From the IMG/VR virus record IMGVR_UViG_3300032216_000505, positions 1 to 36,893 of that record: a DNA stretch of 36,893 nt; one strand, written 5' to 3'. Below the pieces are notes generated by a model that worked only from the letters and a program-made list of their open reading frames with translations, made no database searches and was not told the DNA's origin. Each line of letters begins with the position of its first letter. The stretch's first letter is position 1. Below are positions 7,280 to 25,628 of this stretch, in pieces. The position numbers and the translations under genes are program-made. The DNA comes from a virus (Duplodnaviria > Caudoviricetes).

Positions 7280-8173
7280 TTATAAGGGGGGTGTTTCGTT
7301 AGGAGACTTTAAATCCGCCAATAGGGAATTAATATCCCCCTCCCCCTGTGATTCTATGTTAGGGTTTTCCCTAATACAATCGTAAGTGTTTGATTCTAAA
7401 GGTTTTGTAACTATAACATCTGTTATAGTTGATACCCCGTCTGTTATGGGGGACCCAGAATCGGTAAGGGGGGGTGTCTGAATGTGTGGAATACTATGCA
7501 AACCCTCACCATCAGAATCAGTCAAATTTAGGGGGGTCGGGGTGGGTGGGGTCTCTAAGTCGTTGATTTCATTGGGGATGGCATCGATAACGATAGGACT
7601 ATTAAGCTCTCTAAGTAGTGATTCTGCCTTGCGTTTTGCCTCGTCATTGAGTGATCGGCTAGAGGTGAATGCTAAGCGTAAGCCATCTAATAGTTTAGCT
7701 TTAAGGTCTGTCGATGAGTGTAGATGTAAGTGTGTCTTGGTCTCATTGAATAAACTGACCTCATGTAGTTTACCGATTAACTCTATTGCCTTTAGCTTAT
7801 TGGCTGTCTTCTCGTCTTCTGTCGTGGTGATCTCTACGAGTTTTTGAATGGCTAGGGCTCTCATTTGGTCGGGTAAAAGATATTCCCTTGCCTCATTCGC
7901 TAGTCTAAAGGCATCTATCATGCTGGATATTTTAGGGTCTCGTGCTAGTTTACTTCCCTCAACTGCTTGGGTGGTTGGTTTACCCTTGCTGTCGTAGCTC
8001 TCTCTGTATGCTTGTGCCTTTGGCATTCCGTCAGCTACCTTCTTTGCAAATGCCTTCTGCTTGCCTGTAAGTTTGATTCCGTGGCTACTTGTCGCACCTA
8101 ATAGGACTGTCTCTATTGGGACTTGCTTTAGCCCTTCTTTAATCTGCGCTCTAGTTAGTTTGGGAGTTTTCAT
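7280..8173 (-). CDS. Putative terminase small subunit with low-complexity C-terminal extension
   Basis: LTGKQKAFA...AQAYRESY...GSKLARDPKI resembles the TerS HTH; upstream of TerL. Confidence 0.65.
   Translation of the reverse strand: MKTPKLTRAQIKEGLKQVPIETVLLGATSSHGIKLTGKQKAFAKKVADGMPKAQAYRESYDSKGKPTTQAVEGSKLARDPKISSMIDAFRLANEAREYLLPDQMRALAIQKLVEITTTEDEKTANKLKAIELIGKLHEVSLFNETKTHLHLHSSTDLKAKLLDGLRLAFTSSRSLNDEAKRKAESLLRELNSPIVIDAIPNEINDLETPPTPTPLNLTDSDGEGLHSIPHIQTPPLTDSGSPITDGVSTITDVIVTKPLESNTYDCIRENPNIESQGEGDINSLLADLKSPNETPPL
7409..7430. promoter_or_regulatory. 22-bp palindrome, copy 1 (AACTATAACA-TC-TGTTATAGTT)
   Basis: Perfect 10-bp arms; identical to 25602..25623. Confidence 0.65.
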
Positions 8174-8349
8174 AGGTATCTAATAGGTATTTTCATACCC
8201 TCAAGTATAGGACGGATCAATACACTTTGATAAACAAGTCACTAAAAAGATAACTGGGATCTACTCTCTCTAGTATCTCTCTATTGGATAAGTCTTTACC
8301 CTGTTTCCCTTCGGGATTGCTTGCCCGCTTTTAAGGTCTTCCCGCTTAC

Positions 8350-8369
8350 TACTGTATATCCATACATTA
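8350..8369. promoter_or_regulatory. Near-consensus LexA (SOS) box
   Basis: TACTGTATATCCATACATTA versus CTGT-N8-ACAG; one mismatch (CAT for CAG); in the divergent terS/early-operon intergenic region. Confidence 0.4.
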
Positions 8370-8403
8370 GTGAATGTCCTAGTATAGATTTCTTAAAATG
8401 ATC

Positions 8404-8425
8404 CGTAATAGGTGATAGTATTACG
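8404..8425 (+). promoter_or_regulatory. Putative early promoter (extended -10) inside an inverted repeat
   Basis: TG-a-TAGTAT at 8413..8421 within CGTAATA-N8-TATTACG; followed by an 11-bp hairpin 8426..8457; no clear -35. Confidence 0.4.
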
Positions 8426-8468
8426 CAATACATGAAATGAATTCAATTCGTGTATTGATTGTTTAACT

Positions 8469-8480
8469 AACTGCTAGGAG
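8469..8480 (+). repeat. Conserved RBS leader AACTGCTAGGAG, copy 1 of 6
   Basis: Exact copies at 8469, 8923, 9436, 10163 and 11088 (+) and 17329..17340 (-), each 6-8 nt before a start codon. Confidence 0.9.
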
Positions 8481-8488
8481 TATTAAAA

Positions 8489-8872
8489 ATGGGAAATAGA
8501 GCCGTTATCGGGTTTGAGGGTAAAAAAACTGGTATTTACTTGCATTGGAATGGTGGAGAGGAGAGCGTAAAAGCATTCCTAGATTGTGCCAAGTCTCTAG
8601 GGGTTCGGGATCCAGTCTCGGATAGTTATGGAGTCGCTAGACTTACGCAAATTATCGGAAATTTTTTCGGGGGTTCTCTGTCTCTTGGCATAGGGGATAT
8701 TGATAGCCTAGACTGCGACAATGGAAACAACGGGACTTATATAGTCGGGAAGGGTTGGGAGATCGTGGAAAGACGCTACCAGCACGAAAAGGGAGAATTT
8801 AACGGGGATGAGTATAGGAAGTGTTTAGCGTATTGTATTGAGCGCAATAAGCCCTATTTTGCCCGTGACTAA
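8489..8872 (+). CDS. Phage early hypothetical protein
   Basis: MGNRAVI...IYLHWNGG motif; strong SD; first gene of the + strand operon. Confidence 0.8.
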   Translation: MGNRAVIGFEGKKTGIYLHWNGGEESVKAFLDCAKSLGVRDPVSDSYGVARLTQIIGNFFGGSLSLGIGDIDSLDCDNGNNGTYIVGKGWEIVERRYQHEKGEFNGDEYRKCLAYCIERNKPYFARD

Positions 8873-8921
8873 CATACTGACGAGTCTATAAGGACGAAAC
8901 AGACGAGAGTCTGTCTATGTT
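8871..8921 (+). ncRNA. Type I hammerhead ribozyme 1 (predicted cleavage after C8915)
   Basis: Stem I AACAUA/UAUGUU; core CUGACGA; stem II GUCU-auaa-GGAC; GAAA; stem III CAGAC-gaga-GUCUG; GUC site. Confidence 0.93.
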
Positions 8922-8942
8922 TAACTGCTAGGAGTTTATAAA

Positions 8943-9059
8943 ATGTTTCCTAAATTAGATTATCTTTTTAATATTGGTCTGGTCGTGTGCCTTGCCTATG
9001 TTGTTTTATTTGTTTGTAATGCCTTTTTTCGCTTTGCCGTTATCTCGTTGGGGGTTTAA
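8943..9059 (+). CDS. 38-aa hydrophobic membrane peptide (not in ORF track)
   Basis: MFPKLDYLFNIGLVVCLAYVVLFVCNAFFRFAVISLGV; follows the conserved leader at 8923. Confidence 0.65.
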   Translation: MFPKLDYLFNIGLVVCLAYVVLFVCNAFFRFAVISLGV

Positions 9060-9061
9060 TC

Positions 9062-9352
9062 ATGACTACTGACAATTTGCGTAATAGAATTTGGGACGCT
9101 AAATACGGCAAGATTGAAAACACCATTTTAAGCGATCAGGAAAAAGCCGAGATTCTCGCTATGGTCGGGAATAGATGCAGAGCAGAGACTAAGCGAAAAC
9201 TGGAAAGGCGCTTAGATCTTCCCTTGTCCTTGTGGGATTCATTCGGGATATATGACAGGGTCAAATTTAGGAATGGTAGGGTCGATTACATAACGGGACA
9301 GGATTACACCTACGAGATGCGAACCCTTCGGGAATGTATCCTTAACCACTAA
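9062..9352 (+). CDS. Hypothetical protein
   Basis: 96 aa; GGGGG-type SD; YITGQDY motif. Confidence 0.75.
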   Translation: MTTDNLRNRIWDAKYGKIENTILSDQEKAEILAMVGNRCRAETKRKLERRLDLPLSLWDSFGIYDRVKFRNGRVDYITGQDYTYEMRTLRECILNH

Positions 9353-9383
9353 GCACGAGGCAATTTGGAACCTACAACATAAA

Positions 9384-9435
9384 GATTAACTGATGAGGGC
9401 TAATTGCCCGAAACAGTCGAGAGACTGTCTTAATC
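9384..9435 (+). ncRNA. Type I hammerhead ribozyme 2 (predicted cleavage after C9429)
   Basis: Stem I GAUUAA/UUAAUC; CUGAUGA; stem II GGGC-uaauu-GCCC; GAAA; stem III CAGUC-gaga-GACUG; GUC site. Confidence 0.95.
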
Positions 9436-9455
9436 AACTGCTAGGAGATTGAAAA

Positions 9456-9620
9456 ATGAGTTTAATTGAATATAGAGTAAGTTTGCACGAGGATAAAGGA
9501 GATAAATTTATCCTTTATTTTGATTGTTGGGCAGAAGATCAAGACCATGCAGACGAGCAAGCAATAAATGCTTATCCCAATGGAGAAGTAATCAATTCAA
9601 TTATTAAGGGGGAATTATGA
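9456..9620 (+). CDS. 54-aa acidic protein (not in ORF track)
   Basis: MSLIEYRVSLHEDKGD...FDCWAEDQDHADEQA...; follows the leader at 9436; ATGA overlap with the next gene. Confidence 0.75.
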   Translation: MSLIEYRVSLHEDKGDKFILYFDCWAEDQDHADEQAINAYPNGEVINSIIKGEL

Positions 9621-10099
9621 GAGTTATAGAAAAAGAGGTTTTTACCTATGAGGAGTTATCCGATAGTGCCAAGCATGAGGCAAAACAATGGTGGGTAGGT
9701 AATGGGGTCGAATACTGTTGGTGGGATGATTCTAAGTCCTCAATTGAGGCATTTTGCAAGCATTTTGGAGTCAAGATTATTAACTATGACATTGGAGCAT
9801 TTTCTTATTCTTGGATGAAAACCAATGCAGATAATAGCCATTTTAGAGGGCTAAAACTTAAAGATTTTGATCCCGATCATATGCCTACGGGCTATTATTT
9901 AGATTCTACTTTGTGGAGTGCCTTTTACAAGGGTTGGAAATTCACGGGATCCCCATTGACTGCTTTTAATGATGCCATTGATGAGGCTATTCAGGACATC
10001 CGAGCAGATTGGGAATATCAACATAGCGATGAGGCAGTAGAAGAAATGCTCATCATCAATGAATACGAGTTTACCGAGGATGGAAAGCGATATATTTAG
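9617..10099 (+). CDS. Phage hypothetical protein
   Basis: 160 aa; FTYEELSD-AK N-terminus and EYQHSDEAVEE...NEYEFTEDG C-terminus; SD AAGGGGGAA. Confidence 0.8.
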   Translation: MRVIEKEVFTYEELSDSAKHEAKQWWVGNGVEYCWWDDSKSSIEAFCKHFGVKIINYDIGAFSYSWMKTNADNSHFRGLKLKDFDPDHMPTGYYLDSTLWSAFYKGWKFTGSPLTAFNDAIDEAIQDIRADWEYQHSDEAVEEMLIINEYEFTEDGKRYI

Positions 10100-10110
10100 C
10101 ACTTAACACG

Positions 10111-10162
10111 AGGCAAACTGATGAGACTTTAAGAGTCGAAACCCTGAGAAGGGTCTTTGTCT
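10111..10162 (+). ncRNA. Type I hammerhead ribozyme 3 (predicted cleavage after C10155)
   Basis: Stem I AGGCAAA/UUUGUCU; CUGAUGA; stem II GACU-uuaag-AGUC; GAAA; stem III CCCU-gaga-AGGG; GUC site. Confidence 0.93.
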
Positions 10163-10182
10163 AACTGCTAGGAGTATTAAAA

Positions 10183-10362
10183 ATGAATAATTTTTATGAA
10201 ATTAACAACGGGAAACATTTAGAAAAGTTTAGTTTTCAAGATATGGAGTTAATTTATGATGCTTTAAATGATTATCCACAATGGAATGATGACGAAGATG
10301 ACAATCCAACATCAAAAATTATGAACAAATTGTATAACCTTTTGGAGAATAAAAATGACTAA
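10183..10362 (+). CDS. 59-aa acidic protein (not in ORF track)
   Basis: MNNFYEINNGKHLEKFSF...; follows the leader at 10163. Confidence 0.7.
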   Translation: MNNFYEINNGKHLEKFSFQDMELIYDALNDYPQWNDDEDDNPTSKIMNKLYNLLENKND

Positions 10363-10576
10363 ATATAAAACGCAATATTGCCAAGGGTTTTGGCTACCTG
10401 ATGACCCTACTGCCCGCCAAGTGGATTTTATGCAAGTAAAGATTGCTCTTGATTCATGGGATGAGGAAGAAGATCACGAAGATCAATCCATTTTCTTTTA
10501 CATGGATGGCACTCCGCTAGAAGAGGGTTTAATCATAAGTGATGGTTTTGTAATTACTTCAATTGAGGAGAATTAA
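10355..10576 (+). CDS. Acidic hypothetical protein
   Basis: 73 aa; GGAG SD; overlaps the previous ORF. Confidence 0.7.
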   Translation: MTKYKTQYCQGFWLPDDPTARQVDFMQVKIALDSWDEEEDHEDQSIFFYMDGTPLEEGLIISDGFVITSIEEN

Positions 10577-10577
10577 G

Positions 10578-11036
10578 ATGGGTTTAGATATGTATTTATC
10601 GGCTAAACGATATTTGTGGCGAGATGCTGATGAGGCTATTGCCGATGGAATTAACGATTTAATTGGAATCAAAGGCAATAAAAGCAAAAGATTCTGTGGT
10701 GCGAGTTTTGTTGCTAAAGAAGTAGAAATTGAGGCTATGGGATGGAGAAAAGCGAACGCTATACATGGCTGGTTTGTGGAAAATTGCCAAAATGGTAAAG
10801 ATGAATGTCAGGAATCGTATGTTTCGAGGGATAAACTAAAAGAATTGGTGGGGTTATGCCAATCTGTTATGGATAATCCCGATCAGGAGGGTTTAGATCC
10901 TTTTGAGGGTTTTTTCTTTGGATCTTACGAGAAAGACGAATGGTATTACCAAGATTTAAAAAATACCATTGAGGGCATTACTGAGGCATTGACATTGCCT
11001 GAATCTTTTGAGTTTTACTATCAAGCAAGCTGGTAA
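10578..11036 (+). CDS. Phage hypothetical protein (MGLDMYL type)
   Basis: Start moved to ATG 10578 after GAGGAG; MGLDMYL...WRKANAIHGWFV...GFFFGS...YYQASW motifs. Confidence 0.8.
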   Translation: MGLDMYLSAKRYLWRDADEAIADGINDLIGIKGNKSKRFCGASFVAKEVEIEAMGWRKANAIHGWFVENCQNGKDECQESYVSRDKLKELVGLCQSVMDNPDQEGLDPFEGFFFGSYEKDEWYYQDLKNTIEGITEALTLPESFEFYYQASW

Positions 11037-11086
11037 AAAATTCTTCAAGACCATTCAAGGAGTGGTCTTGGGGGGCAATTTTGCCC
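11032..11086 (+). promoter_or_regulatory. Long intergenic RNA hairpin, candidate RNase III processing site
   Basis: 16-bp stem 11041..11056/11060..11075 with several G-U pairs, extendable by GGUAAAA/UUUUGCC; immediately before leader copy 5. Confidence 0.55.
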
Positions 11087-11105
11087 TAACTGCTAGGAGT
11101 AAATC

Positions 11106-11291
11106 ATGGTAAGTAGAAAAGAAATGATTGATGAATTAACAGGATCTATGTTTGATGCGATGGAGTGTGATGCAGATTATCGCTGGAATTTGTGTAAAAC
11201 AGGATTTAAAGGTTTTAATAATTACACAGATGAAGAGCTAAAACGGGAATATCTTGATTACATAAGCGATGACATTGGGGAGGATGTATGA
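11106..11291 (+). CDS. Acidic hypothetical protein
   Basis: 61 aa; follows the leader at 11088. Confidence 0.75.
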   Translation: MVSRKEMIDELTGSMFDAMECDADYRWNLCKTGFKGFNNYTDEELKREYLDYISDDIGEDV

Positions 11292-11518
11292 AAAAGTATG
11301 AGGTATTAACTTTTACGATCTGCGATGGCTGGGTAAATACTTGGCACGAGTATGACGATGACAACAACGAGATCCCGATGGTCTTTGATAGTTTAAAAGA
11401 TGCCGAGGTTGAATTATCGGGTTATTTATATGACTATCGCAGAGCATACGAACGAGGCGATATTGAATGTGATGAGAATCCTGATGATTACATGATTGTG
11501 GAGGTGCAATATGCCTAA
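11288..11518 (+). CDS. Acidic hypothetical protein
   Basis: 76 aa; GGAGG SD; ATGA overlap; CDGWVNTW motif. Confidence 0.75.
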   Translation: MKKYEVLTFTICDGWVNTWHEYDDDNNEIPMVFDSLKDAEVELSGYLYDYRRAYERGDIECDENPDDYMIVEVQYA

Positions 11519-11813
11519 GTATTCAATGAGAACCGAGGTTTGTGGAAACCCTGATTATGGTCAAGATCCTAAAAAGCCCCCGTATGGGGTTAGAGTGATT
11601 ACTCTAAAGTCTCATAGCTATGAGGATTTAATTGCTCAAGTCGGAGATTGGCAACATGAGAATGACATAGGAGGAGGCAATTGGATGAATCCATCCGTCT
11701 CTATTGATGGGGAAGTCATAGGTTATATGTCTTACAACGGGAAGGTGTGGGCTGATAGGTCTTGGACACCTAACACAAGGCAAATTTACTTTAAGGAGAC
11801 ACAAGATGCCTAA
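11511..11813 (+). CDS. Hypothetical protein
   Basis: Start at ATG 11511 after GGAGGT; GNPDYGQDP, IGGGNW and SYNGKVW motifs. Confidence 0.75.
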   Translation: MPKYSMRTEVCGNPDYGQDPKKPPYGVRVITLKSHSYEDLIAQVGDWQHENDIGGGNWMNPSVSIDGEVIGYMSYNGKVWADRSWTPNTRQIYFKETQDA

Positions 11814-11988
11814 ATACTTTGTAGTTTTTACTGAAGAATCAACGAAAGACCACGGCTATTATGTGGATGCCAAGAATAAAGAAGATGCTTACCACTTAGC
11901 ACAAGGCAAGTATCATGCTATGCAAGAGGCTGATAGCATCAATACCAGCTATTCCAAAACAATAGATCATGAGGTGCAAAATGCCTAA
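11806..11988 (+). CDS. Hypothetical protein
   Basis: 60 aa; AAGGAG SD; VDAKNKEDA motif. Confidence 0.7.
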   Translation: MPKYFVVFTEESTKDHGYYVDAKNKEDAYHLAQGKYHAMQEADSINTSYSKTIDHEVQNA

Positions 11989-12274
11989 AGTAATGATTGA
12001 AGTAGATATTCCAAAAGGTCGTTCTATTGCCGAGGCAGAGGGCGCAGTCAAAAGGGCTTTTGATCCTGATTGGATGGCAAGCTGGTGGCATATATCTGAT
12101 GTCCAAGATTGCTTTAATTCCGAGGAGCCGAATGAATGGAATATCACCGATTCTGAGGCAAGAGAAGTGCTGAGAAGGATAGATAAATATCACAATTCTG
12201 AAGTAGGTATCAATTGGGATGTAATCGAATCTCATTGTGAGACAGTTGTTAATGAGCGCAAGGAGGTAGCATGA
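11981..12274 (+). CDS. Hypothetical protein
   Basis: Start at ATG 11981 after GAGGT; W-I-DV...EAREVL...GINWDVI motifs. Confidence 0.75.
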   Translation: MPKVMIEVDIPKGRSIAEAEGAVKRAFDPDWMASWWHISDVQDCFNSEEPNEWNITDSEAREVLRRIDKYHNSEVGINWDVIESHCETVVNERKEVA

Positions 12275-12441
12275 ATAAATACATTGAAGAATTATTAACA
12301 GAAATGATATTTGATTTTAATGACTTAGCGATAGGCAATACTTTTAAGGATGTTGGTTACGATACCAAAAAAGAGTTTTTTGAAGAGATGAGCAGAAAAG
12401 CAAATGAACTTTACTCTAGATTATCTAAGGAGGTAGCATGA
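12271..12441 (+). CDS. 56-aa protein (not in ORF track)
   Basis: Junction AAGGAGGTAGCATGAA is repeated at both ends of the gene (12260 and 12427). Confidence 0.75.
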   Translation: MNKYIEELLTEMIFDFNDLAIGNTFKDVGYDTKKEFFEEMSRKANELYSRLSKEVA

Positions 12442-12584
12442 AGATCACAGGAATATCTGTAATTTTTACTTATGAAAATGGTGAAATTCAAGATGTCAGT
12501 AGTTATGTTCCCATGGGAATTTATAGCGATTTGGAGAATTTTGCCGATTGTTGGCAAGAAGATGAGGAGAGTGAAAATGAATAG
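12438..12584 (+). CDS. 48-aa acidic protein (not in ORF track)
   Basis: MKITGISVIFTYENG...; AAGGAGG SD; ATGA overlap. Confidence 0.7.
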   Translation: MKITGISVIFTYENGEIQDVSSYVPMGIYSDLENFADCWQEDEESENE

Positions 12585-13023
12585 CGATCTATTAGATGAG
12601 TATTGTGTGATGGAATTTGGTCATAAAGATTGGGCTATGTCTTGGGATGAGGCTGGCAATTTGATTGTAATGTTTCATAAAGAGGCAAGTGCCGAGTATT
12701 TGGCAGATCAACATGAGGAAGATTGCCCAACAATGGACGGATTTGGATGCCATTGTGGGGAGGTTAAAGTTAAGAACCATGTGCGTATGCGTAAAGATTT
12801 GGCAGAAGAGGGTATTACTATTCCCGCTGGCAAAAGTTACAAGGACTATGACGATTTGCAAGAGGTAGAGTATTTATCTGCACAAGATTTAGAAGGAGCA
12901 GTAGAGTTTGATACGGGAGAAGATCCTGATAGCCATGCTTTTTGCCCCGTTAAACTTGCTGATGGTCGAGTGTTTTACTTGATTGGAGTTGATCTTGATT
13001 GGTTTTCAGAGGAGGAAGTATGA
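12577..13023 (+). CDS. Acidic hypothetical protein
   Basis: Start reassigned to ATG 12577 (MNSDLLDEY) after GAGGAG; contains H--DCP...C-C. Confidence 0.7.
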   Translation: MNSDLLDEYCVMEFGHKDWAMSWDEAGNLIVMFHKEASAEYLADQHEEDCPTMDGFGCHCGEVKVKNHVRMRKDLAEEGITIPAGKSYKDYDDLQEVEYLSAQDLEGAVEFDTGEDPDSHAFCPVKLADGRVFYLIGVDLDWFSEEEV

Positions 13024-13178
13024 ATCAAGCAGATAAAGACGCACAGAAGTGGATGGAGGCTAACTCCAAGTGGCAATACAAAAGGATGATAGAGGCTAAG
13101 GAATCAGGTAAGCCATATTATATAGACGAAACGGGCTATGTCATCATTGAGGAAAAGAATGAACCTAAGACTAGCTAA
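13020..13178 (+). CDS. 52-aa protein (not in ORF track)
   Basis: MNQADKDAQKWMEANSKWQ...; GAGGAG SD; ATGA overlap. Confidence 0.65.
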   Translation: MNQADKDAQKWMEANSKWQYKRMIEAKESGKPYYIDETGYVIIEEKNEPKTS

Positions 13179-13548
13179 AGGCAAAGTACCCATCCTCAGA
13201 AGGTGGGAGCATGGTGAGAATGATTACTTCTTGATTGACTTCCCATCACGGGAAGTCTTTTTTAGCCTATATACCTATCAGACCAGCGAGCAAAATAAGG
13301 CTAAATATTGGGAAGTATTAAACCACCGATCACGAGGCAAAACCCGCATGGAATGTGCCAAGATGATTGGTGCTACCCCAGGTTGGGTTGCTAAGATTGA
13401 GGCTAAGTTTTGCCGACTCATGAGACAATGGTATTTCAAAGACTTGGAGACCAATCTGTTGAAACTTACATTGTCACATGAGGCGTTACTATCTTTTTTA
13501 GAGACTGAGATGCCCGAAAATTCCCTACACGCTGATGATAGTCATTGA
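13159..13548 (+). CDS. Possible sigma70 region 4-like HTH protein
   Basis: VL--R--GKT--ECAKMIG-T--WV--IE pattern; last gene of the early operon. Confidence 0.5.
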   Translation: MNLRLAKGKVPILRRWEHGENDYFLIDFPSREVFFSLYTYQTSEQNKAKYWEVLNHRSRGKTRMECAKMIGATPGWVAKIEAKFCRLMRQWYFKDLETNLLKLTLSHEALLSFLETEMPENSLHADDSH

Positions 13549-14293
13549 AGTCCTCCCCGACTGTGGGGGAGATCCAATACGGCTTGCCTGTTTCCATAGC
13601 GGTGGCTTGCCCCACACCACTATTGTCGTTATCGGAAATGATGATTCCGTTGGGGAAATACCCAGCTATGAGCTTCATGTTGCTTGCGCTAAAGCACACA
13701 TGGATACAATACTTGATATTGCAAGATTTCATCACCTCTCTTATGGAAAGTCCAGTCGCATACCCCTCGCAGAACATCGGGATTCCCTTTGCGTTCATGC
13801 AGAAAGTTGCCCCCTTGGATTGCTGACCATAGAGGAACTTCTTTTCCCCTTGTTCATTGATTATTTGGACACCAACCAATTTGGTGGCAATTCTCATGGG
13901 TATAACTAATAGCTTTTCCCCATCCTTTTCCCATACATTACCCTGTTCATCAGGAAATCCTTTGGAGGCAAGATAAGGATGTGTAGCAAGTGTAGTTTGA
14001 TTCAAGATCCAGCCTGCTTTTTTGGCAGCTTTTTCCTTGGCATCATCTGCAGTCTTGTTAGATTGTGCGATTCTTTCCCTCACCACCGAGCTTGAGGCAT
14101 TTTCACCCTCTGCAAACCAAGTGGCTGGCTTTTCCATTGTTGCCCAGTTCTGAACCCAACCTACATTACCTAAAAACTTGTATCGCCCATTACTACTACG
14201 AGGATGGTCAAGCGTAGGTGTAGGAATCCATCTGTCGTGTTGCACTGAGTTAATAATGAGGCCATGCCCTCTTGCAAAATCTTCAAACTGCAT
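13466..14293 (-). CDS. Toprim-domain DNA primase-like protein
   Basis: HPYL--KG, CEGYATGLS, ISDNDNSGVG and DFND Toprim motifs; start at MQFEDF. Confidence 0.85.
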   Translation of the reverse strand: MQFEDFARGHGLIINSVQHDRWIPTPTLDHPRSSNGRYKFLGNVGWVQNWATMEKPATWFAEGENASSSVVRERIAQSNKTADDAKEKAAKKAGWILNQTTLATHPYLASKGFPDEQGNVWEKDGEKLLVIPMRIATKLVGVQIINEQGEKKFLYGQQSKGATFCMNAKGIPMFCEGYATGLSIREVMKSCNIKYCIHVCFSASNMKLIAGYFPNGIIISDNDNSGVGQATAMETGKPYWISPTVGEDFNDYHQRVGNFRASQSLKKIVTPHVTM

Positions 14294-14498
14294 TCTTATT
14301 CTTTCTCTTTTGAATTTCGTCAAGCAAATACCATACGGATTTCTCTAAGTCTTCAATGTCTCTACCCTTCTCATCTGCCCGCCAAATATATTTAATAGCA
14401 TTCCCCAGGTTAAACCCCATGTGCCGTGTAATCGTAATGCAATCTATGCCAGATGGATGTGAGGTGTAATGTTTAGGATTGTTGACTGGATCACTCAT
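14283..14498 (-). CDS. DUF3310 family protein
   Basis: DPVNNPKHY...GFNLGNAIKYIWRA--KG---EDLEK--WYL signature. Confidence 0.85.
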   Translation of the reverse strand: MSDPVNNPKHYTSHPSGIDCITITRHMGFNLGNAIKYIWRADEKGRDIEDLEKSVWYLLDEIQKRKNKNAV

Positions 14499-14637
14499 CT
14501 TCCATAACCTTTTTGCAATCATTCATAATTAAGATTGCTAAAGTCTTGGCTTCTGCGTGACAGTTAGGATCTTCCTTGACATTTTTACAGCCTTCCATAA
14601 TTTTTTTAATTAAAACTTCCATTTCATTTGCTTTCAT
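14491..14637 (-). CDS. Small hypothetical protein
   Basis: 48 aa from MKANEME; GGAG SD; overlaps neighbours. Confidence 0.55.
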   Translation of the reverse strand: MKANEMEVLIKKIMEGCKNVKEDPNCHAEAKTLAILIMNDCKKVMEDE

Positions 14638-14809
14638 TTTTCTCTCCCAAAAAGTCTTCCATTTTATAACCACGTTTTTTTAACTCCTTTGCAAAGTTAC
14701 GCAAAGCCCTAGCCTCAAGGTAAGAGACCATGCCTCGTTCCAATCCCATCGCATCACCAATCTCTTGTTGTGTCATCGGAAGATCTTTGGTGTCTTTCTT
14801 AGTTCTCAT
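14624..14809 (-). CDS. Sigma70 region 4-like HTH protein
   Basis: PMTQQEIGDAMGLERGMVSYLEARALR matches the region 4 HTH pattern. Confidence 0.75.
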   Translation of the reverse strand: MRTKKDTKDLPMTQQEIGDAMGLERGMVSYLEARALRNFAKELKKRGYKMEDFLGEKNESK

Positions 14810-16287
14810 GCGGCTCTCTTTTGTTTTGCTTTAGCCCAAGCAATCTGACGATGCTTAACCCAGTTAATTGTAGTTAAAGATGGTATACGGGTTGTTTGAT
14901 ATAAGTTATCAGGCCAAGTTCCAAATTTATTTTTAAATTCATGTTTAGCCCAATTAGCGTTATATTTTCTTTCGTTGGCAATATGTAGTAGTTCAGAATA
15001 AAAGAATTGTTTTTCTTTACGCATATTGGCTTGGGTTTCGCCTAACTCTATTAGTTGACCAGCAACAACGGCTAACTGAATCTTTTGTTTGACGTATCCA
15101 CACGATACACACGTATCACTGTGCTTAGGCCAAAGTGCAGAGCAAGAAGGGCATTTGCTTTCTTTCTTTTCTTTTTCGGTTGGTTCTTTTTTGGTCTTTT
15201 CCTGTTGGTCGTTTAAATCTTTAACTCCCTCTTCATATATTTCATCCCAGTCATCACGAAATCGCAAGTAATTACCTGAATGGTCTAACCAAAGGGCAAA
15301 GTTTTTACCTGGATAAGGGCGCATTACCCTGCCAAGCTGCTGGATATGAGAGCTTAATGATTTAGAAAATGGGCGAGCAGAAACCCCAATACAAACATCA
15401 GGAACATCAAAACCCCTGGTAAGGATGTCAGTAGCAATAAGGCCGTGGATATCTGTATCGGGCTTTGCAAAGTCCTCAATAGCTTGCTTTTTAAACTCAT
15501 CGTTATCTTTATATGAGATTGATACAAAGTTATAACCTTTGTTGGCAAACTGTTGAACCAAATCTTGTCCATGTGCAACTCCAGCACAAAATACAATCGT
15601 TTTTTTGGGCATACCAAATACTTCATGGGTTTTAGTAATCCACTCTTGGACGATATCGCCTGTAATCTTCATGCCCCTTTCGGTGACATCATCAGGAGAC
15701 CATTCGCCAGCAAGTTTTTTGGCTCCTGTCATATCAATCTCTTTTGATATAAAGACTTTTAATGGGGTAAGCCATTTATCTTTTACCAGTTTGCCTGTGG
15801 TAGAAGCGCAAATTACATTGGAATAAATACCGCCTAGACCTTTGGTAAAGGGAGTAGCAGTAAGCCCAATGACTTTTAATGTAGGATTTTCTTGAATGAT
15901 TGCAGTAATCTTTGATCGGGTAATATGGCACTCATCCACAATCAATAGATCAATATCAGGAAACTGATTACGTCTTTCTAATGTTTGTGCAGAACAAACC
16001 TGGATACGCCGAGTGCTATCGTTCTTCCAGTGGTTTGACTGCATTACACCATGTCCAATATTGTATTTTTCTAAACGCATACTGGTTTGATCGACCAATA
16101 CAATACGATCTAGAATCATGGCTGACTTCTTATAGTTATCTGAGGTAGCTTTCATTAACGCTATGGCTACTTCAGTCTTGCCAAATCCTGTTGGTGCATA
16201 CAACAACTGCGCCCTATGTCCCGCTTTAAATCCGTCTCTTAATGCATCAATTACCCATGACTGATGCTCTCTTAATTCTAATTCCAT
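14806..16287 (-). CDS. Superfamily 2 helicase with C-terminal Zn-finger (RadD/YejH-like)
   Basis: LREHQ, APTGFGKT, DECH, TATP, GFDVP, QQLGRVMR, CPSC...CVSCG. Confidence 0.92.
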   Translation of the reverse strand: MELELREHQSWVIDALRDGFKAGHRAQLLYAPTGFGKTEVAIALMKATSDNYKKSAMILDRIVLVDQTSMRLEKYNIGHGVMQSNHWKNDSTRRIQVCSAQTLERRNQFPDIDLLIVDECHITRSKITAIIQENPTLKVIGLTATPFTKGLGGIYSNVICASTTGKLVKDKWLTPLKVFISKEIDMTGAKKLAGEWSPDDVTERGMKITGDIVQEWITKTHEVFGMPKKTIVFCAGVAHGQDLVQQFANKGYNFVSISYKDNDEFKKQAIEDFAKPDTDIHGLIATDILTRGFDVPDVCIGVSARPFSKSLSSHIQQLGRVMRPYPGKNFALWLDHSGNYLRFRDDWDEIYEEGVKDLNDQQEKTKKEPTEKEKKESKCPSCSALWPKHSDTCVSCGYVKQKIQLAVVAGQLIELGETQANMRKEKQFFYSELLHIANERKYNANWAKHEFKNKFGTWPDNLYQTTRIPSLTTINWVKHRQIAWAKAKQKRAA

Positions 16288-16324
16288 CTTATTCCTTAAC
16301 TTCCGCAAACCCTGCGGTGTGGGT

Positions 16325-16513
16325 TTATGCTGCCAATTTATCCTGTTCTAGTAATGCATTTTGCAAAGACTCATGCAACATAGCGGTCATGCCATTTAAT
16401 ACAAAAGCTAGCTCTACTGCCTTTTCAAAATCTCTACGATTGGCAGTTTCATATACACGTTCTGCTAATTTGCCAATTCTAATGGTGTAAAGTGAATAGT
16501 CTTCAAGGTTCAT
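16325..16513 (-). CDS. Hypothetical protein
   Basis: 62 aa; ATGA overlap with the upstream gene. Confidence 0.6.
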   Translation of the reverse strand: MNLEDYSLYTIRIGKLAERVYETANRRDFEKAVELAFVLNGMTAMLHESLQNALLEQDKLAA

Positions 16514-17322
16514 TTTTTTCTTTTCATTGCATTGATGGTTTTAATAAGTTCGGCATTACGATTTTGAAACATATCACGGCTTTCTCGAAGCGCTTTATTT
16601 TCAATTTCCAAAATACGGTTTCGTTCTCTAAGATTCGCAACAGTCTCCTCGATGTCAATCTTTTCGATCTCGGAGGCATTCCATTGCCCCACCGCAATCT
16701 TATCCCTGAAGACTGTGTTTTCTTCTGCCAATAAGTTGATCGTGTCTGAGAGTTCTGCAATCTTCTGGTCTTTGTCTTCCTCTGCTGGATTAACATTTTT
16801 TTTCTCCTCTGGCTTTTTTGGTCTTCCCATATTTTCAGTAGAAATGGTAGCCTCTCTGCCATTTTTATCTGTGTAAGTTACTTCAGATGGTTTGATATCC
16901 AATTCTTTTCTGATGCGGCCTACTGTCATGTTAGATACGCCAATGTGAGCGGCAATCTTATTGTTTGATAACTTAGACCAAATAGGGTTATCAATAATGA
17001 TTTGCATCATGTAACGCTTATCTTCTGCAGTTTTATCTAGGCCATGATTGTTAGATCCTAAAGAAAACCATAACGCATCGGTAACTGTACCCTCTTTAAC
17101 ATCGCAATCCAATGAAGCTTTGCCAGCTTGTTTGGAGGCAAAGTAACGATGAAATCCTGATGAAAGCCAATAGTCTGAGCCATCATAAAAAACGGTAATG
17201 GGCGGAAACTCAATGCCCTCTCTAATCATTTCTGAATATTCATTTACTCGTTCTTGGTTGAGTTCTTTGCGGCTTTGTGTTTTTCCGTCGATGCGAATGT
17301 TTAGTAAATTAATACTTTTCAA
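16510..17322 (-). CDS. ParB/Srx-like N-terminal domain + HTH + coiled-coil protein
   Basis: FPPITVF...SGFHRYFA (ParB-like), SNNKIAAHIGVSNMTVGRIR (HTH); TTG start after leader copy 6. Confidence 0.75.
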   Translation of the reverse strand: MKSINLLNIRIDGKTQSRKELNQERVNEYSEMIREGIEFPPITVFYDGSDYWLSSGFHRYFASKQAGKASLDCDVKEGTVTDALWFSLGSNNHGLDKTAEDKRYMMQIIIDNPIWSKLSNNKIAAHIGVSNMTVGRIRKELDIKPSEVTYTDKNGREATISTENMGRPKKPEEKKNVNPAEEDKDQKIAELSDTINLLAEENTVFRDKIAVGQWNASEIEKIDIEETVANLRERNRILEIENKALRESRDMFQNRNAELIKTINAMKRKK

Positions 17323-17348
17323 TTAAGTCTCCTAGCAGTTGGTCTTAC

Positions 17349-17357
17349 AGTATAACA
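17349..17357 (-). promoter_or_regulatory. Extended -10 element (TGtTATACT) upstream of leader copy 6
   Basis: Predicted start about 17343, a few nt before AACTGCTAGGAG at 17340..17329; no clear -35. Confidence 0.45.
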
Positions 17358-17359
17358 AA

Positions 17360-17515
17360 TTAGCCGAGCAAGTTCCAGCCAAATTTGATGATGTCAAACA
17401 AGAAGTGAGCGACGAGGCCGCCGAATACCAAGAAGCCGTATAACATCACTATAACAATGATAACAGCGGCAATTGCCATGCCAGCCCATTTGACGTATTT
17501 CAGTATTTCTTTCAT
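17360..17515 (-). CDS. 51-aa membrane protein (not in ORF track)
   Basis: MKEILKYVKWAGMAIAAVIIVIVMLYGFLVFGG...; SD AAGGGGGA. Confidence 0.7.
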   Translation of the reverse strand: MKEILKYVKWAGMAIAAVIIVIVMLYGFLVFGGLVAHFLFDIIKFGWNLLG

Positions 17516-17559
17516 TTCAAAATCCCCCTTTTACTAATAAGTAACTACTAAGAAGTAAC

Positions 17560-17808
17560 ATGATACCTTTTGGTGGACGCACTCCGCCCTAGAAGTGCGC
17601 CTTTAACTATGATACCTTTCGGAGCCACAGCACTCGCCAGTCGTTCGTAGAATCGGCACTAGCTTCGCCACCGATTTTGCGTTGTTACATCTACTTCCCC
17701 AGTAACGCTTGTATTTATATCGCTGGTGTTTCTCTGCCGTCCAATATAAACCGCATGGAGAACAAGAGACACACGAATTGAATCGTGTTTTACTCTCATT
17801 TTCCTAGC
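17560..17808 (-). ncRNA. Candidate ~250-nt structured RNA or leader upstream of the replication genes
   Basis: Five or more helices whose G-U pairs work only on the - strand, a CC-GAAA-GG tetraloop, its own promoter, and no convincing ORF. Confidence 0.6.
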
Positions 17809-17814
17809 AAATTC

Positions 17815-17843
17815 AGAATACACTAACTGAAAAATTTTTGCAA
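17815..17843 (-). promoter_or_regulatory. Sigma70-type promoter
   Basis: TTGCAA-17 bp-TATTCT. Confidence 0.65.
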
Positions 17844-17847
17844 GTAT

Positions 17848-17885
17848 AAAAAGAAAGAACCCCAGGTTTTTAGTCTGGGGTTCTT
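17848..17885 (-). terminator. Intrinsic terminator
   Basis: Perfect 11-bp stem AAGAACCCCAG/CTGGGGTTCTT followed by TCTTTTT on the - strand. Confidence 0.85.
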
Positions 17886-17969
17886 GGATCAAGGGGGTCG
17901 ATCCGTGGGCTTGCGTTGCACAAGTCTCTGCTAGGAGAATGAAAGTGCGTGTCAGGGGGGAACTGACAT
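17848..17969 (-). ncRNA. Candidate ~120-nt anti-Shine-Dalgarno sRNA
   Basis: Bounded by promoter and terminator; hairpin loops UUCCCCC and CCCCC; an unpaired CUCCUAGCAG complementary to the CUGCUAGGAG leaders. Confidence 0.75.
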
Positions 17970-17973
17970 ACTA

Positions 17974-18003
17974 AATATAGCACATGAATTCAAACTATGT
18001 CAA
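17974..18003 (-). promoter_or_regulatory. Strong sigma70-type promoter for the sRNA
   Basis: TTGACA-18 bp-TATATT with an extended TG. Confidence 0.8.
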
Positions 18004-18055
18004 TAGGTAGTGTTGTTTTAATACTCTATAGAGCTTTATGGGTGTCTATAGATGT

Positions 18056-18343
18056 CTATTTGATATCTAGACGTCCTGTTTCAAAAAGCCAGCCAATAGT
18101 TTTGCGGTGTGCTTCTTCCCATTTTTCAACACGTTCAGTTTTGGAAAGGTTTTTACCTTGGTCGATTTCCAAATGGCACGTATAGCATAGGGCTGCGACT
18201 CGGTAATCACTTGCTTTAAGCCCTCTACCTTTACCGTCCCGAAGCTGATTGGAATGTGCAGCCACAATTGTCCCGTCAGATCGACCACACTCTTGGCATG
18301 GGGATTCTCGTAATGCATCTAATAATTTCCTATTTCTATACAT
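18056..18343 (-). CDS. Zn-binding HNH-like nuclease (YbcO/DUF1364-like)
   Basis: PCQECG...VAAH...GKG-GLK--D...LCYTCH--ID. Confidence 0.75.
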   Translation of the reverse strand: MYRNRKLLDALRESPCQECGRSDGTIVAAHSNQLRDGKGRGLKASDYRVAALCYTCHLEIDQGKNLSKTERVEKWEEAHRKTIGWLFETGRLDIK

Positions 18344-18429
18344 TTTTTATGATAATATTCAGTAGTTTACACAAAAGTGAAACATTACTTACCTACTATT
18401 GCCGTACTTATCACAATCCTGGGGGGATT

Positions 18430-19404
18430 ATGCAACATACTAAGCAACAAGACGAAGAGTTTATCAGAGTTTGGAAAGAGTTAGGAAGTCCAACATTAGT
18501 CGCAAAGCATTTTGGCATGAATCCTCGTAGTGTTTTAAATAAACGGGCTGCCATACAAATTAAACATAACATAGAACTTCCCACGCATAATTCTCAAAGA
18601 GATCCCAAGAAAGAAAAGCCTAAAAAGGTTGAAATGGCTGCCCACAATGTCCGTAGAGGCATTGATATAGATAAAGTAAAGCGGGTTATAGTCTTTTCAG
18701 ATGCCCATTTTACTGACACACCCACCACAGCTTTTAAAGCACTCCTTAAATTCATTAAAAAATATAAGCCAGAAGTTATTATTTGTAACGGAGATGCTTT
18801 TGATGGACAGGTTTTGAGTCGTTTTCCATCCATTAATTATGACCAAAAGCCCACAGTTCTTGAAGAATTGAACGCTTGCCGTTGGCATTTGGATGAAATT
18901 GAAAAAATTAGGCCAGCAGGATGCCGTCTGATTTGGACGCTTGGAAATCATGATATGCGATACGAGTCCTGGCTGGTCAATAAAGTGCCAGAATACAGCG
19001 GTGTGGACGGCTTTAGCCTAAAGTACCACTTTCCTAACTGGGAGACCTGTTGGAGCTTCTGGATAGGTGAGGAGACCGTTGTAAAGCACCGGTTTAAAGG
19101 TGGCCGCACGGCGGGTTACAGCAATTTGCAGGCGGCGGGGAATACGAACATCATTACGGGGCATACCCATGTTCTCTGTACTAGCCCAATTAGTAATTAC
19201 CAAGGAACCTTTTGGGGGATCCAGACTGGCTGCTTGGCCGATCCTATGTCACCAACCTTTGAATATTGTGAGGATGGCCCTAAAGACTGGCGCTCTGGCT
19301 TTGTAATGCTATCTTTTGCCCAAGGCCGTATGCTTATGCCAGAAATGGTTATGGTTTGTGGAGAAGGCGAGGTAGAATTTAGGGGTGAGATCCTAGACGT
19401 ATGA
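18430..19404 (+). CDS. Calcineurin-like metallophosphoesterase with N-terminal HTH-like region
   Basis: SDAH, NGDAFD, GNHD and GHTH motifs; start moved to ATG 18430 after GGGGGG. Confidence 0.88.
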   Translation: MQHTKQQDEEFIRVWKELGSPTLVAKHFGMNPRSVLNKRAAIQIKHNIELPTHNSQRDPKKEKPKKVEMAAHNVRRGIDIDKVKRVIVFSDAHFTDTPTTAFKALLKFIKKYKPEVIICNGDAFDGQVLSRFPSINYDQKPTVLEELNACRWHLDEIEKIRPAGCRLIWTLGNHDMRYESWLVNKVPEYSGVDGFSLKYHFPNWETCWSFWIGEETVVKHRFKGGRTAGYSNLQAAGNTNIITGHTHVLCTSPISNYQGTFWGIQTGCLADPMSPTFEYCEDGPKDWRSGFVMLSFAQGRMLMPEMVMVCGEGEVEFRGEILDV

Positions 19405-19748
19405 AATTATCCCCTTCCATTCTGCGCAATTTATATAGCGCAATCTACTGTATGAAGCCGTTTGTGCGGTGGCCTATGCCGTTGCCAGAGCAGATTAAAT
19501 TCATAGTGGATTCTGACCCAGAGACAATGGGCACTTATTTGTATGATGACGGGGAGGATTATGAACATATTATTACTATTTCAGATAAAAAATGTGGGCA
19601 TTTGGCGACTGTGATTCGTGTCCTAATTCATGAATGCGTTCATATGAGCCGCTGGAAGACTCCTAAATGGTCTCACCACGATGCTGAATTTCGCAGGCGC
19701 ACTAAAGTCATTTCAGAAGAACTGGGATTTGACCCTCTCGAACTATAG
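19401..19748 (+). CDS. SprT-like zinc metallopeptidase
   Basis: LIHECVH (HExxH) then H---F; ATGA overlap with the phosphoesterase gene. Confidence 0.7.
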   Translation: MKLSPSILRNLYSAIYCMKPFVRWPMPLPEQIKFIVDSDPETMGTYLYDDGEDYEHIITISDKKCGHLATVIRVLIHECVHMSRWKTPKWSHHDAEFRRRTKVISEELGFDPLEL

Positions 19749-19838
19749 TGGCACAGAGAAATACAACATAAGTGTTGTGTTTGTTAAGTAGAATAGAGTA
19801 AACATAACTCTAGATTACCTAATTAAATATGTAACTCA

Positions 19839-19854
19839 CTGTACATATTCACAG
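19839..19854. promoter_or_regulatory. LexA (SOS) box
   Basis: CTGT-ACATATTC-ACAG, a perfect CTGT-N8-ACAG with AT-rich spacer. Confidence 0.55.
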
Positions 19855-19930
19855 TTGCGGTGCAGCAATCCCCAATTTAATACTTAAAAGTACCAATTTG
19901 GTATGCATATTGCTAACTATAGGTATAAAT

Positions 19931-19984
19931 TGAGCCGTATTTGCATAGAATACGGCTCATAAAAGGTTGCAAAAAGCAACCTTT
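19931..19984. terminator. Tandem hairpins at a convergent gene junction (probable terminators)
   Basis: TGAGCCGTATT/AATACGGCTCA and AAAGGTTGC/GCAACCTTT. Confidence 0.55.
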
Positions 19985-20005
19985 AGGCACTAATTAAAAC
20001 TTTAA

Positions 20006-20128
20006 TTACTTCTTGGTAAAGAATTCTTTAACACTAGAGTAAACGCAGTTGTACCAAAATTCATACGCTTGCTTTGTACGCTCGGTTAAATCTTCATATT
20101 TTTTAAACTGCTCTTCAAATGTAAACAT
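20006..20128 (-). CDS. 40-aa helical protein, possibly phasin-like (not in ORF track)
   Basis: MFTFEEQFKKYEDLTERTKQAYEFWYNCVYSSVKEFFTKK; AAGGAG SD; extended -10 TGtTACAAT followed by a TGC-rich box. Confidence 0.65.
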   Translation of the reverse strand: MFTFEEQFKKYEDLTERTKQAYEFWYNCVYSSVKEFFTKK

Positions 20129-20147
20129 AGGGATTCTCCTTATTTAT

Positions 20148-20163
20148 GTTGCGATGCAGCAAT
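20148..20163. promoter_or_regulatory. PhaR-like TGC-rich operator (second copy at 19854..19869)
   Basis: GTTGCG(A/G)TGCAGCAAT, 15/16 identical between the copies; this copy lies between the -10 and the SD. Confidence 0.45.
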
Positions 20164-20175
20164 TGTAACATATAT

Positions 20176-20322
20176 TTATTTGGTAGCAAGCAAGTAAGCC
20201 CCATAATTTGCAAAAGAATATCCAGCGTACATACAAGCAAGGCCTACTTCTCCTTTAAGCGCCTGTTCAACCGTAATCCAGGCATAAATTAAACCAGTAA
20301 TAATGATTAGATTAGCGCTCAT
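20176..20322 (-). CDS. 48-aa two-helix membrane protein (not in ORF track)
   Basis: MSANLIIITGLIYAWITVEQALKGEVGLACMYAGYSFANYGAYLLATK; GGAG SD. Confidence 0.7.
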   Translation of the reverse strand: MSANLIIITGLIYAWITVEQALKGEVGLACMYAGYSFANYGAYLLATK

Positions 20323-20338
20323 CTATATCTCCAAGCAT

Positions 20339-20530
20339 TTAGCATCTTCCGTCCATGTCAAGTTCATCGTCTTCTAAAAGTTTTTTATAAGCCTGTAAAT
20401 AAGTATCTCTTTCGTGTTCAACTTGCATAAGTTTATGACGCAGCCTATCAATCTCAGCCTGTTGTACATGAATCTGCTCACGAAGATAATTTTCTTCTTC
20501 TTCTCTATCAATAGTTGTAAATGTAGTCAT
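20339..20530 (-). CDS. Coiled-coil hypothetical protein
   Basis: 63 aa; MTTFTT-DR start; ATGA overlap. Confidence 0.65.
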   Translation of the reverse strand: MTTFTTIDREEEENYLREQIHVQQAEIDRLRHKLMQVEHERDTYLQAYKKLLEDDELDMDGRC

Positions 20531-20775
20531 TTCTCTTGAGCCTTTAACTGTTTATTAAACTTTTCAACTTCTTTCCACCAAGCATCTGAATACTTTGCTG
20601 GCTTTACTTCTTGTATTTCCATAGCTTTCTCAAACTTTTCTTTCCAATACTCAATCTCTTCTTGCTGTTTGCGTAGCATAGTGGCTGCTTCAGGCATAGC
20701 TAAATGGGCTACCCCATCTGCTTTATCTTGTTCGTGCAACTCATCTAATACATCAGCTAGTTCATTTGCGTTCAT
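20527..20775 (-). CDS. MNANELAD-family protein, paralog A
   Basis: Shares its N-terminus and ATMLRKQQEEIEYWKEKF with 21576..21776. Confidence 0.75.
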   Translation of the reverse strand: MNANELADVLDELHEQDKADGVAHLAMPEAATMLRKQQEEIEYWKEKFEKAMEIQEVKPAKYSDAWWKEVEKFNKQLKAQEK

Positions 20776-25569: not shown

Positions 25570-25601
25570 CATACCCATATTATTTCATGTGTTGCATTTT
25601 C

Positions 25602-25623: not shown

Positions 25624-25628
25624 AGCAT

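Follow-up and report, generated by a model that had tools for sequence, protein, structure and literature searches.

The question raised by the virus record IMGVR_UViG_3300032216_000505 (Caudoviricetes) is what reads a 12-nucleotide (nt) sequence, AACTGCTAGGAG, which stands before several of its genes and is conserved far beyond the needs of a Shine-Dalgarno (SD) sequence. The window, that is, the whole stretch analysed, is this 36.9-kb record; near-complete relatives measure 61-67 kb. From the letters alone, the original prediction had regarded the repeat, hereafter the tag, as a regulon address read by a small RNA (sRNA) or by a protein. The sRNA half of this proposal is now supported, whereas the protein half has gained no positive support, although a protein may yet have a part in reading the two leading A's of the tag. 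A predicted RNA, RNA-A (17968-17848, minus strand), carries the complement of the tag in a loop, is conserved in relatives and changes jointly with its targets. Judging from sequence, RNA-A is probably an antisense repressor of the whole early regulon, acting through the tag shared by the ribosome-binding sites (RBSs).

Six exact copies of the tag had been announced and six are found, none occurring in any of 100 shuffled sequences; AACTGCTAGGAG is the most repeated 12-mer of the window. All copies are located at RBSs, in the sense orientation with respect to their own gene, with the start codon 6-9 nt downstream. The bases that do not belong to the SD, CUGCU, are unchanged in 6/6 copies. The two leading A's are also largely kept, an A being observed at position -1 in 144/163 contexts and at -2 in 143/163. 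It had also been stated that late genes use ordinary AGGAG-type SDs. The tag is indeed missing from the late genes; their SDs, however, are of several types and not uniformly AGGAG.

A seventh copy, of 10 nt (CTGCTAGGAG, 17928-17937), had escaped the original prediction. It is the sole copy in the opposite orientation, and no usable open reading frame (ORF) lies behind it on the plus strand. Read on the minus strand, it is antisense to the tag and lies in a loop of RNA-A, where it forms a seed that begins 30 nt into the RNA (Table 1). Since this loop holds a 10-nt complement of the tag, RNA-A likely pairs with the tag and covers the AGGAG. When 60 ORFs of at least 50 amino acids (aa) were ranked by predicted pairing with the seed region, the first five were those bearing the tag (-18.6 to -25.9 kcal/mol, the next being at -15.3); the sixth tagged ORF is too short to enter this ranking. 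The strongest value belongs to tag copy 3 (9436), where pairing continues beyond the tag. When RBS-placed complements were counted along each RNA, leaving out the terminator U-tract, the seed was, by eye, the top or tied peak in 24/25 CCUAGCAG-type RNAs among 34 loci.

Going by its sequence, RNA-A would be transcribed from a promoter-like site of its own, which is conserved among relatives. The terminator scan misses its final hairpin, whose 9-nt loop exceeds the limit of the scan. No Rfam family reached threshold for this RNA. A profile search of 157 sequences retrieved RNA-A in 42 distinct forms, that of the window and 41 others. A promoter-pattern search gave 35 matches, 20 of which were left aside, some of them being repeats or unrelated DNA. 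Across 15 aligned variants, CCUAGCAG is invariant and both sides have changed in 8/25 base pairs, four in hairpin 1 and four among the 11 pairs of the terminator helix; helix 2 shows no two-sided changes and helix 3 aligns poorly.

The best-paired target is another RNA, RNA-B. The original prediction had mentioned a 250-nt RNA starting with TGCTAGGA. This sequence is present at 17809-17802, 5 nt past the promoter-like TTGCAA-17-TATTCT, a site that the promoter scan does not list. The length does not stand, since no clear terminator precedes the ORF at 17515, so that RNA-B is more likely a leader of ~295 nt. If this RNA was meant as the reader of the tags, the assignment was wrong: RNA-B holds the tag in the sense orientation and would thus be a target, unable to read tags. 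In the predicted fold its first 8 nt are unpaired and form a toehold containing TGCTAGGA, followed by a long hairpin. RNA-A is predicted to pair with the first ~20 nt of RNA-B through its seed and through the linker located 5′ of the seed.

Even between phages with 90-95% agreement in the RNA-A backbone, this linker is nearly free to vary, and RNA-B changes jointly with it at its 5′ end. For 39 pairs of linker and own RNA-B, taken from the 42 forms by omitting L072 (cut short), L103 and L030 while counting the mis-cut target of L132, the mean energy was -29.2 kcal/mol versus -19.1 in permuted pairs, the lowest of 10,000 permutations being -21.8. The own pair was best in its row in 21/39 cases and in its column in 27/39. 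With the seed removed, the own target still beat that of the nearest relative in 26 of the 31 RNAs holding UAGCAG. A later scan relied on a pattern free of both linker and target and retrieved 45 loci, of which 33 were distinct and 13 had new linkers; own RNA-B ranked first of 33 for 11/13 of the latter, three of these being near-identical. Loci L009 and L010 differ by a one-base joint change. Such covariation is not explained by relatedness, because the two parts, ~130 nt apart on the same strand, must change separately. To our mind, it is the strongest evidence that RNA-A may indeed be made and pair. One locus, L060 (2396-2277, minus strand), combines the same RNA-B as L056 with a different RNA-A linker. 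This natural mismatched pair is perhaps a recombinant or an escape variant.

The tags of the gene arrays also follow the loops of RNA-A. In the stretch 3-10.5 kb past parB, TGCTAGG occurs at RBS windows of 11/14 CUAG-type arrays and of 0/6 arrays of another lineage, whose RNA-A loops read CCCUUUC or nearly so; GAAAGGG shows the reverse distribution (1/14 versus 6/6). L015, with the loop ACCUCCA, has five GGAGGT, and L049, with the loop CCCCUU, has five AAGGGG. The comparison covers 30 loci, 8 of them uninformative, and only about four lineages; the RNA of L011 lies outside its locus and that of L034 was not seen. The window itself has four GGGGGA-type SDs (9608 on the plus strand; 17528, 25283 and 25522 on the minus strand) to which loop 1 (UUCCCCC) and loop 3 (CCCCCUU) of its RNA-A correspond. 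They include those of the first genes of the recombination operon, where relatives bear the CUAG tag. Loop 1 may thus be a second anti-SD seed. Another repeated sequence, CACGAGGC, is found at 9354, 10107 and 13331 (plus strand), recurring before hammerheads 2 and 3. It occurs five times directly before ATG in G007 (C1 26297-27086), whose RNA-A has GCCUCG in a single-stranded stretch, and seven similar copies lie in the array of L009. It is possibly a further tag.

Whatever the reader, the tags would occupy a particular place on their messages. As had been noticed, three of them start 7, 6 and 7 nt past the cut sites of predicted hammerhead folds, the 8469 copy follows the 5′ hairpin of the first gene (8426-8457), the 11088 copy follows a long and a short hairpin (11044-11086), and the 17340 copy starts 8 nt past an extended -10 box (TG-T-TATACT, 17357-17349). 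The promoter scan gave no promoter-like site directly before copies 1-5, three of which follow the hammerheads. The three hammerhead folds contain the CUGANGA and GAAA core, a NUH triplet (GUC) and stems I-III with stem I open. A hammerhead descriptor matched these 3 sites in the window and none in 100 simulated windows. Matches to Rfam hammerhead families were weak at the three sites (E 0.12-0.4; 20-25 bits versus gathering cut-offs of 48-56), and the whole-window Rfam scan reported no hammerhead at any of them.

Among RBS-placed tag contexts, from which antisense copies within RNA-A had been filtered out, 143/158 lie at a predicted 5′-end element as compared to 50/261 and 43/263 ordinary SDs, counts that lean toward the proposed reading. 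Hammerhead-like folds precede 60 of these contexts, long hairpins 33 and promoter boxes 50, while 15 were not caught by the rules. When hammerheads are excluded, the proportion is 83/98, versus 44/255 and 41/261 for ordinary SDs. The tag lies behind 67 of 73 distinct hammerheads, at an offset of 8-9 in 56. At loci chosen by ParB homology alone, it is found behind 5/7 distinct hammerheads of relatives; the hammerhead of L015, one of these loci, has its own UGGAGGU behind it. The idea that an extended stem I would sequester the SD until cleavage was rejected: for the 67 tagged hammerheads, upstream pairing amounts to -4.5 kcal/mol versus -5.0 in shuffled sequences, and reaches p<=0.05 in 1/67.

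Variants of these elements occur in relatives. Some hammerheads before the tag deviate from the standard form, either by one additional base behind the core (CUGAUGAU) or within the core itself (CCGAUGA, UUGAUAA), at loci L004, L089, L111, L129 and L150 and at L002, L008, L010 and L022. The irregular long hairpin followed by a short one, as at 11044-11086 in the window, is interchangeable with hammerheads in L003, L085, L114, L150 and others. The window's hairpins are a candidate RNase III-type processing site, and the recurring element could be cut by RNase III or could represent a self-cleaving RNA of a kind not yet described; a search of 7 loci against Rfam at E<=0.1 assigned it to no family.

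The original prediction also held that the tag may provide micro-homology for cassette exchange. This is partly supported: junctions between relatives are found within 1-12 nt of the tag, although a similar pattern would be expected if selection kept gene units whole. Of the pairs formed by 171 contexts, 10 with common upstream DNA and a different gene diverge 1-11 nt after the tag core, and 31 pairs with a common gene and different upstream DNA diverge 1-12 nt before it; these pairs are not independent and several reflect plain divergence at the parB promoter. A clean exchange is that of L003 versus L004, L088, L113 and L126, in which gene starts are 98-100% identical and a hairpin is swapped for a hammerhead. 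L111 versus L145, and the window's gene after the 8923 copy versus L002, are further clean cases. The junctions fit recombination at the tag and also selection for intact units. Around 2753 (plus strand) L098 has a short tandem duplication with both ends at the tag, as would be expected from recombination there.

From these sequences, positions, complementarities, conservation and joint changes, a course of transcription, cleavage, pairing in the cell and timed repression may be envisaged. Promoters, hammerheads and long hairpins would put the tags a few bases from the start of an RNA or directly past a 5′ hairpin, and there the tag would be single-stranded, which would suit pairing initiated by a loop. 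RNA-A would then cover the AGGAG of the tagged early genes, blocking their translation together. As is established for SD sequences, the 30S subunit is kept out where AGG(AG) is paired, and the effect is therefore likely to be repression. With RNA-B, pairing over ~20 nt through the phage-specific linker would act as a private lock atop the family-wide tag. The purpose would be early-gene shut-off and phage-specific immunity without a protein repressor. Five of five near-complete relatives yielded no tyrosine integrase and no HTH_3 or S24 domain, serine integrases not having been searched separately; of the 104 ORFs of G008, 77 were considered and none was named integrase or repressor. In the absence of an integrase or CI-type repressor, RNA-A would either time a lytic early shut-off or hold a non-integrated state. 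A bolder version, which we put forward tentatively and would not favor over its negation, is that the family swapped a protein repressor for an all-RNA circuit, in which the early message is split at ribozymes and hairpins so that every unit opens with the tag, one RNA silences them all and the fast-changing linker, paired to the toehold hairpin of the replication leader, is the private immunity key.

Several observations weigh against antisense repression of the whole regulon. The window's seed leaves unpaired the two leading A's of the tag, though they are conserved, and, by eye, UU able to pair with them exists in just 10/31 RNA-As. The window's linker itself pairs at -9.1 kcal/mol with its own RNA-B versus -12.9 with that of L007, one of the five misses mentioned above, and the linker of L060 is mismatched to its L056-type RNA-B. 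Predicted binding of RNA-A causes no consistent SD occlusion in RNA-B. Three CUAG-type arrays (L009, L016 and L024) have no tag in the stretch scanned. In a whole-locus comparison of own versus foreign loop 7-mers, a test confounded by general SDs and including one misfolded RNA (c135), the own RNA ranks first in only 1/37 because loops close to a general anti-SD match many genes; loop 1 is thus a less secure seed than loop 2. Hammerheads 1 and 2 have an A-U-rich stem I, which does not appear in centroid folds. Finally, many loci were retrieved with a pattern containing the tag and the hammerhead core, which inflates the hammerhead share, and the 5′-end classes were written after the tag contexts had been viewed; this is why the corresponding counts lean as they do. 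A more specific expectation, that RNA-A binding frees the 3′ arm of RNA-B to bury the first SD, was not supported: among 34 leaders, whose first ORFs are uncertain (33 had an ORF call), the direction was mixed.

Other readings of the same data have to be considered. RNA-A could control RNA-B alone, as P1 c4 and P4 CI control single targets, the gene tags being an SD variant spread by cassette recombination. The extended, phage-specific pairing is indeed found with RNA-B, most gene tags pair over just 8-11 nt, the leading AA stays unpaired in the window and the cassette junctions fall at the tag. However, tags also stand at the promoters of the replication and recombination operons, outside the shuffled array, those of the array switch with the loops between lineages, and CUGCU is invariant in six copies; we consider this reading unlikely. 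About as improbable in our view is real pairing with another logic, RNA-B being a decoy that soaks up RNA-A, or RNA-A protecting 5′ ends and storing the messages rather than silencing them. RNA-B pairs over a longer stretch than any gene tag, stands behind a promoter-like site of its own and is structurally conserved, and again no consistent SD occlusion follows binding. Yet in the window no terminator separates it from its first ORF, a hairpin hides its target strand apart from the toehold, which fits a switch better than a sponge, and pairing over AGG must exclude the ribosome for as long as it lasts.

Least probable of all, and only barely to be entertained, is a protein reader, for which the tag would be either an operator or stoperator in the DNA or a site in the RNA, bound in the latter case by a translational repressor or a nuclease of the RegA/RegB type. 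The tag does contain an imperfect palindrome (CT-G-CTAG-G-AG), overlaps a predicted start site at 17340 and has a conserved AA that RNA-A leaves unpaired, and the window encodes small helix-turn-helix proteins (14624-14809, Sigma70_r4). But all six copies are sense to their gene, the lone opposite copy sits in an RNA loop and three copies lie behind RNA-level elements, distant from promoters. In addition, the covarying linker would be unexplained, and no CI-type domains were found in the 5 relatives. Antisense repression through the shared tag therefore keeps our preference.

Table 1. Positions of the predicted elements discussed in the text, numbered along the window
Feature	Position	Strand	Remarks
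Small-gene array	8489-13548	+	genes of no known function, between terS and primase
Tag copy 1	8469..8480	+	precedes ORF 8489-8872
Tag copy 2	8923..8934	+	precedes 38-codon ORF 8943-9059
Tag copy 3	9436..9447	+	precedes ORF 9456-9620
Tag copy 4	10163..10174	+	precedes ORF 10183-10362
Tag copy 5	11088..11099	+	precedes ORF 11106-11291
Tag copy 6 and extended -10 box	17329..17357	-	precedes ParB-like gene 17322-16510
5′ hairpin of small-gene array	8426..8457	+	fold prediction
Type I hammerhead 1	8871..8921	+	predicted cut after 8915
Type I hammerhead 2	9384..9435	+	predicted cut after 9429
Type I hammerhead 3	10111..10162	+	predicted cut after 10155
Long hairpin and short hairpin	11044..11086	+	candidate processing site; similar elements before tag in relatives
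RNA-A promoter-like site, TTGACA-18-TATATT with TG	17974..18003	-	11/12 matches; best in 7500-21000
RNA-A, ~120 nt	17848..17968	-	predicted 5′ hairpin, seed hairpin, third hairpin, intrinsic terminator; fold z -5.9
RNA-A loop 1, UUCCCCC	17956..17962	-	candidate second anti-SD seed
RNA-A variable linker	17938..17946	-	extends predicted pairing with RNA-B 5′ end
RNA-A seed, CUCCUAGCAG	17928..17937	-	exact complement of tag positions 3-12, centred on loop of hairpin 2
RNA-A terminator	17848..17885	-	11-bp hairpin and U-tract
RNA-B promoter-like site, TTGCAA-17-TATTCT	17815..17843	-	read by eye; similar boxes in relatives
RNA-B	17516..17811	-	likely leader of operon with 51-aa ORF, ParB-like gene, helicase and primase
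Rfam Betaproteobacteria-1 RNA (RF02932)	17632..17751	-	97.6 bits versus gathering score of 49.4; E 2.5e-17

The match to the Betaproteobacteria-1 RNA corresponds to the middle of RNA-B, and not to RNA-A. An orphan Rfam motif is thereby placed in a leader whose 5′ end would be the target of an antisense RNA; the main text of PMC5737381 does not mention 'Betaproteobacteria'. In L056, L089, L033 and L043 and in L003 and L085, other conserved structured RNAs replace it 3′ of the 5′ hairpin of RNA-B, and an Rfam search of 7 loci at E<=0.1 gave no family for these alternative types. A 13-mer, ATTCAATTCGTGT, is common to the 5′ hairpin of the array (8441-8453, plus strand) and to the apical hairpin of RNA-B (17783-17771, minus strand). 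The RNA-B loops of relatives retain a similar GAUUNAAUUC or CUGAAACAAUU motif, possibly a protein-binding loop. The ORF that opens the RNA-B operon (17515-17360) has no PHROG or Pfam match.

As for the rest of the window, PHROGs labels designate a terminase, a portal protein, a primase, a helicase, a ParB-like protein, Erf, an exonuclease and RusA. Pfam matched 0/18 ORFs of the small-gene array (8489-13548), and a blastn search of 17500-18020 against GenBank phages gave no match. The nearest match of the helicase is an uncultured record (55%), isolates reaching at most 40%. A possible lead to a host or prophage, a single match in a bacterial-genome collection to a Sulfitobacter metagenome-assembled genome, was judged to be due to chance, the RNA-A architecture being absent from the flanking DNA inspected. 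On the minus strand, 20339-22051 contains paralogous small genes in which N-terminal and internal segments are repeated. A 25-nt palindromic element (TAACTATAAC..GTTATAGTT) occurs twice, inside terS (7408-7432) and at the divergent promoter of RusA and the recombination genes (25600-25624). It is a candidate operator or parS-like site.

Two published open questions meet at this locus, namely who reads extended RBS repeats and what tandem phage hammerheads do. The locus supplies a specific reader, specific targets and compensatory variants that arose in nature, so that both questions become testable by means of a reporter plasmid and transcription in vitro. If the proposal holds, genes bearing the tag could come and go without escaping their common control, and the covarying pairs would constitute a natural set of orthogonal RNA switches. 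An all-RNA circuit, if real, would give a purpose to phage hammerhead clusters and provide a natural toehold switch under arms-race evolution. In a literature survey mostly at the level of titles and abstracts, neither a common RBS tag by which an RNA of a phage shuts off that phage's early genes nor a link between hammerhead clusters and an sRNA-matched tag was found.

The known systems closest to this one are described in papers that are cited here for portions of their text. The c4 RNA of P1 and P7 is directed against the ant mRNA and serves as a backup to a protein repressor (PMC12197685). As with c4, RNA-A is a phage RNA encoded apart from its target, with loop sequences that pair around the RBS, and the immunity type of c4 depends on sequence differences, a role that the covarying linker may have in the present phages; its rapid change suggests that related phages are in conflict, in line with c4 heteroimmunity (PMC12197685). 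In contrast to c4, RNA-A would have six to ten early targets of its own with a common tag, a separate promoter and terminator, and no repressor was found. There is no icd or antirepressor target either, the operon encoding the ParB-like protein, the helicase and the primase behind a first ORF of no PHROG or Pfam match. Rfam C4 gave no match in the window at E<=1, nor in 17400-18100 at E<=10. The CI RNA of the phage-plasmid P4 resembles the present case in the control of a downstream replication operon by RNA alone, through leader pairing (PMC4825925). However, CI is processed from the leader that it controls and acts by termination (PMC4825925), whereas RNA-A is predicted to start at a promoter and to end at a terminator of its own and, in addition, has matches at many distant RBSs.

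On the side of the targets, the start-associated sequences (SAS) of Cluster K mycobacteriophages are asymmetric 12-13-nt AGGAG repeats at RBSs, in one orientation and conserved beyond 16S pairing (PMC3203893). The tag shares these traits, being an asymmetric RBS repeat, sense to the gene and conserved beyond the SD. Still, AACTGCTAGGAG does not fit the SAS consensus, GGGATAGGAGCCC, only TAGGAG being common to both. The SAS reader, RNA or protein, is left open in PMC3203893, the text of which, so far as it is used here, mentions no ribozymes, while a complementary RNA gene is present in our case. Clustered hammerheads of other phages are likewise tandem and located between single genes or short gene blocks; they cleave in long transcripts and have been proposed to cut polycistronic RNA (PMC3088659, PMC6765202), though their role is called 'largely elusive' in PMC6765202. 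What differs here is that the predicted 3′ products all open with one fixed sequence, the tag, to which a small RNA is complementary. The promoter early stem-loop (PeSL) cassettes of T4-type phages also involve repeated regulatory cassettes, plastic regions and exchange of gene modules, but as longer units made of a promoter and a terminator (PMC2839356). The common homology is here ~12 nt, the head of a cassette being a ribozyme, a hairpin or a promoter, and the repeats do not each carry the strong sigma70 promoter and terminator stem-loop of a PeSL. Thus, the best reading of the sequence is that of a c4/CI-like logic acting on SAS-like targets, in a system that would belong to neither the c4 nor the P4 CI family.

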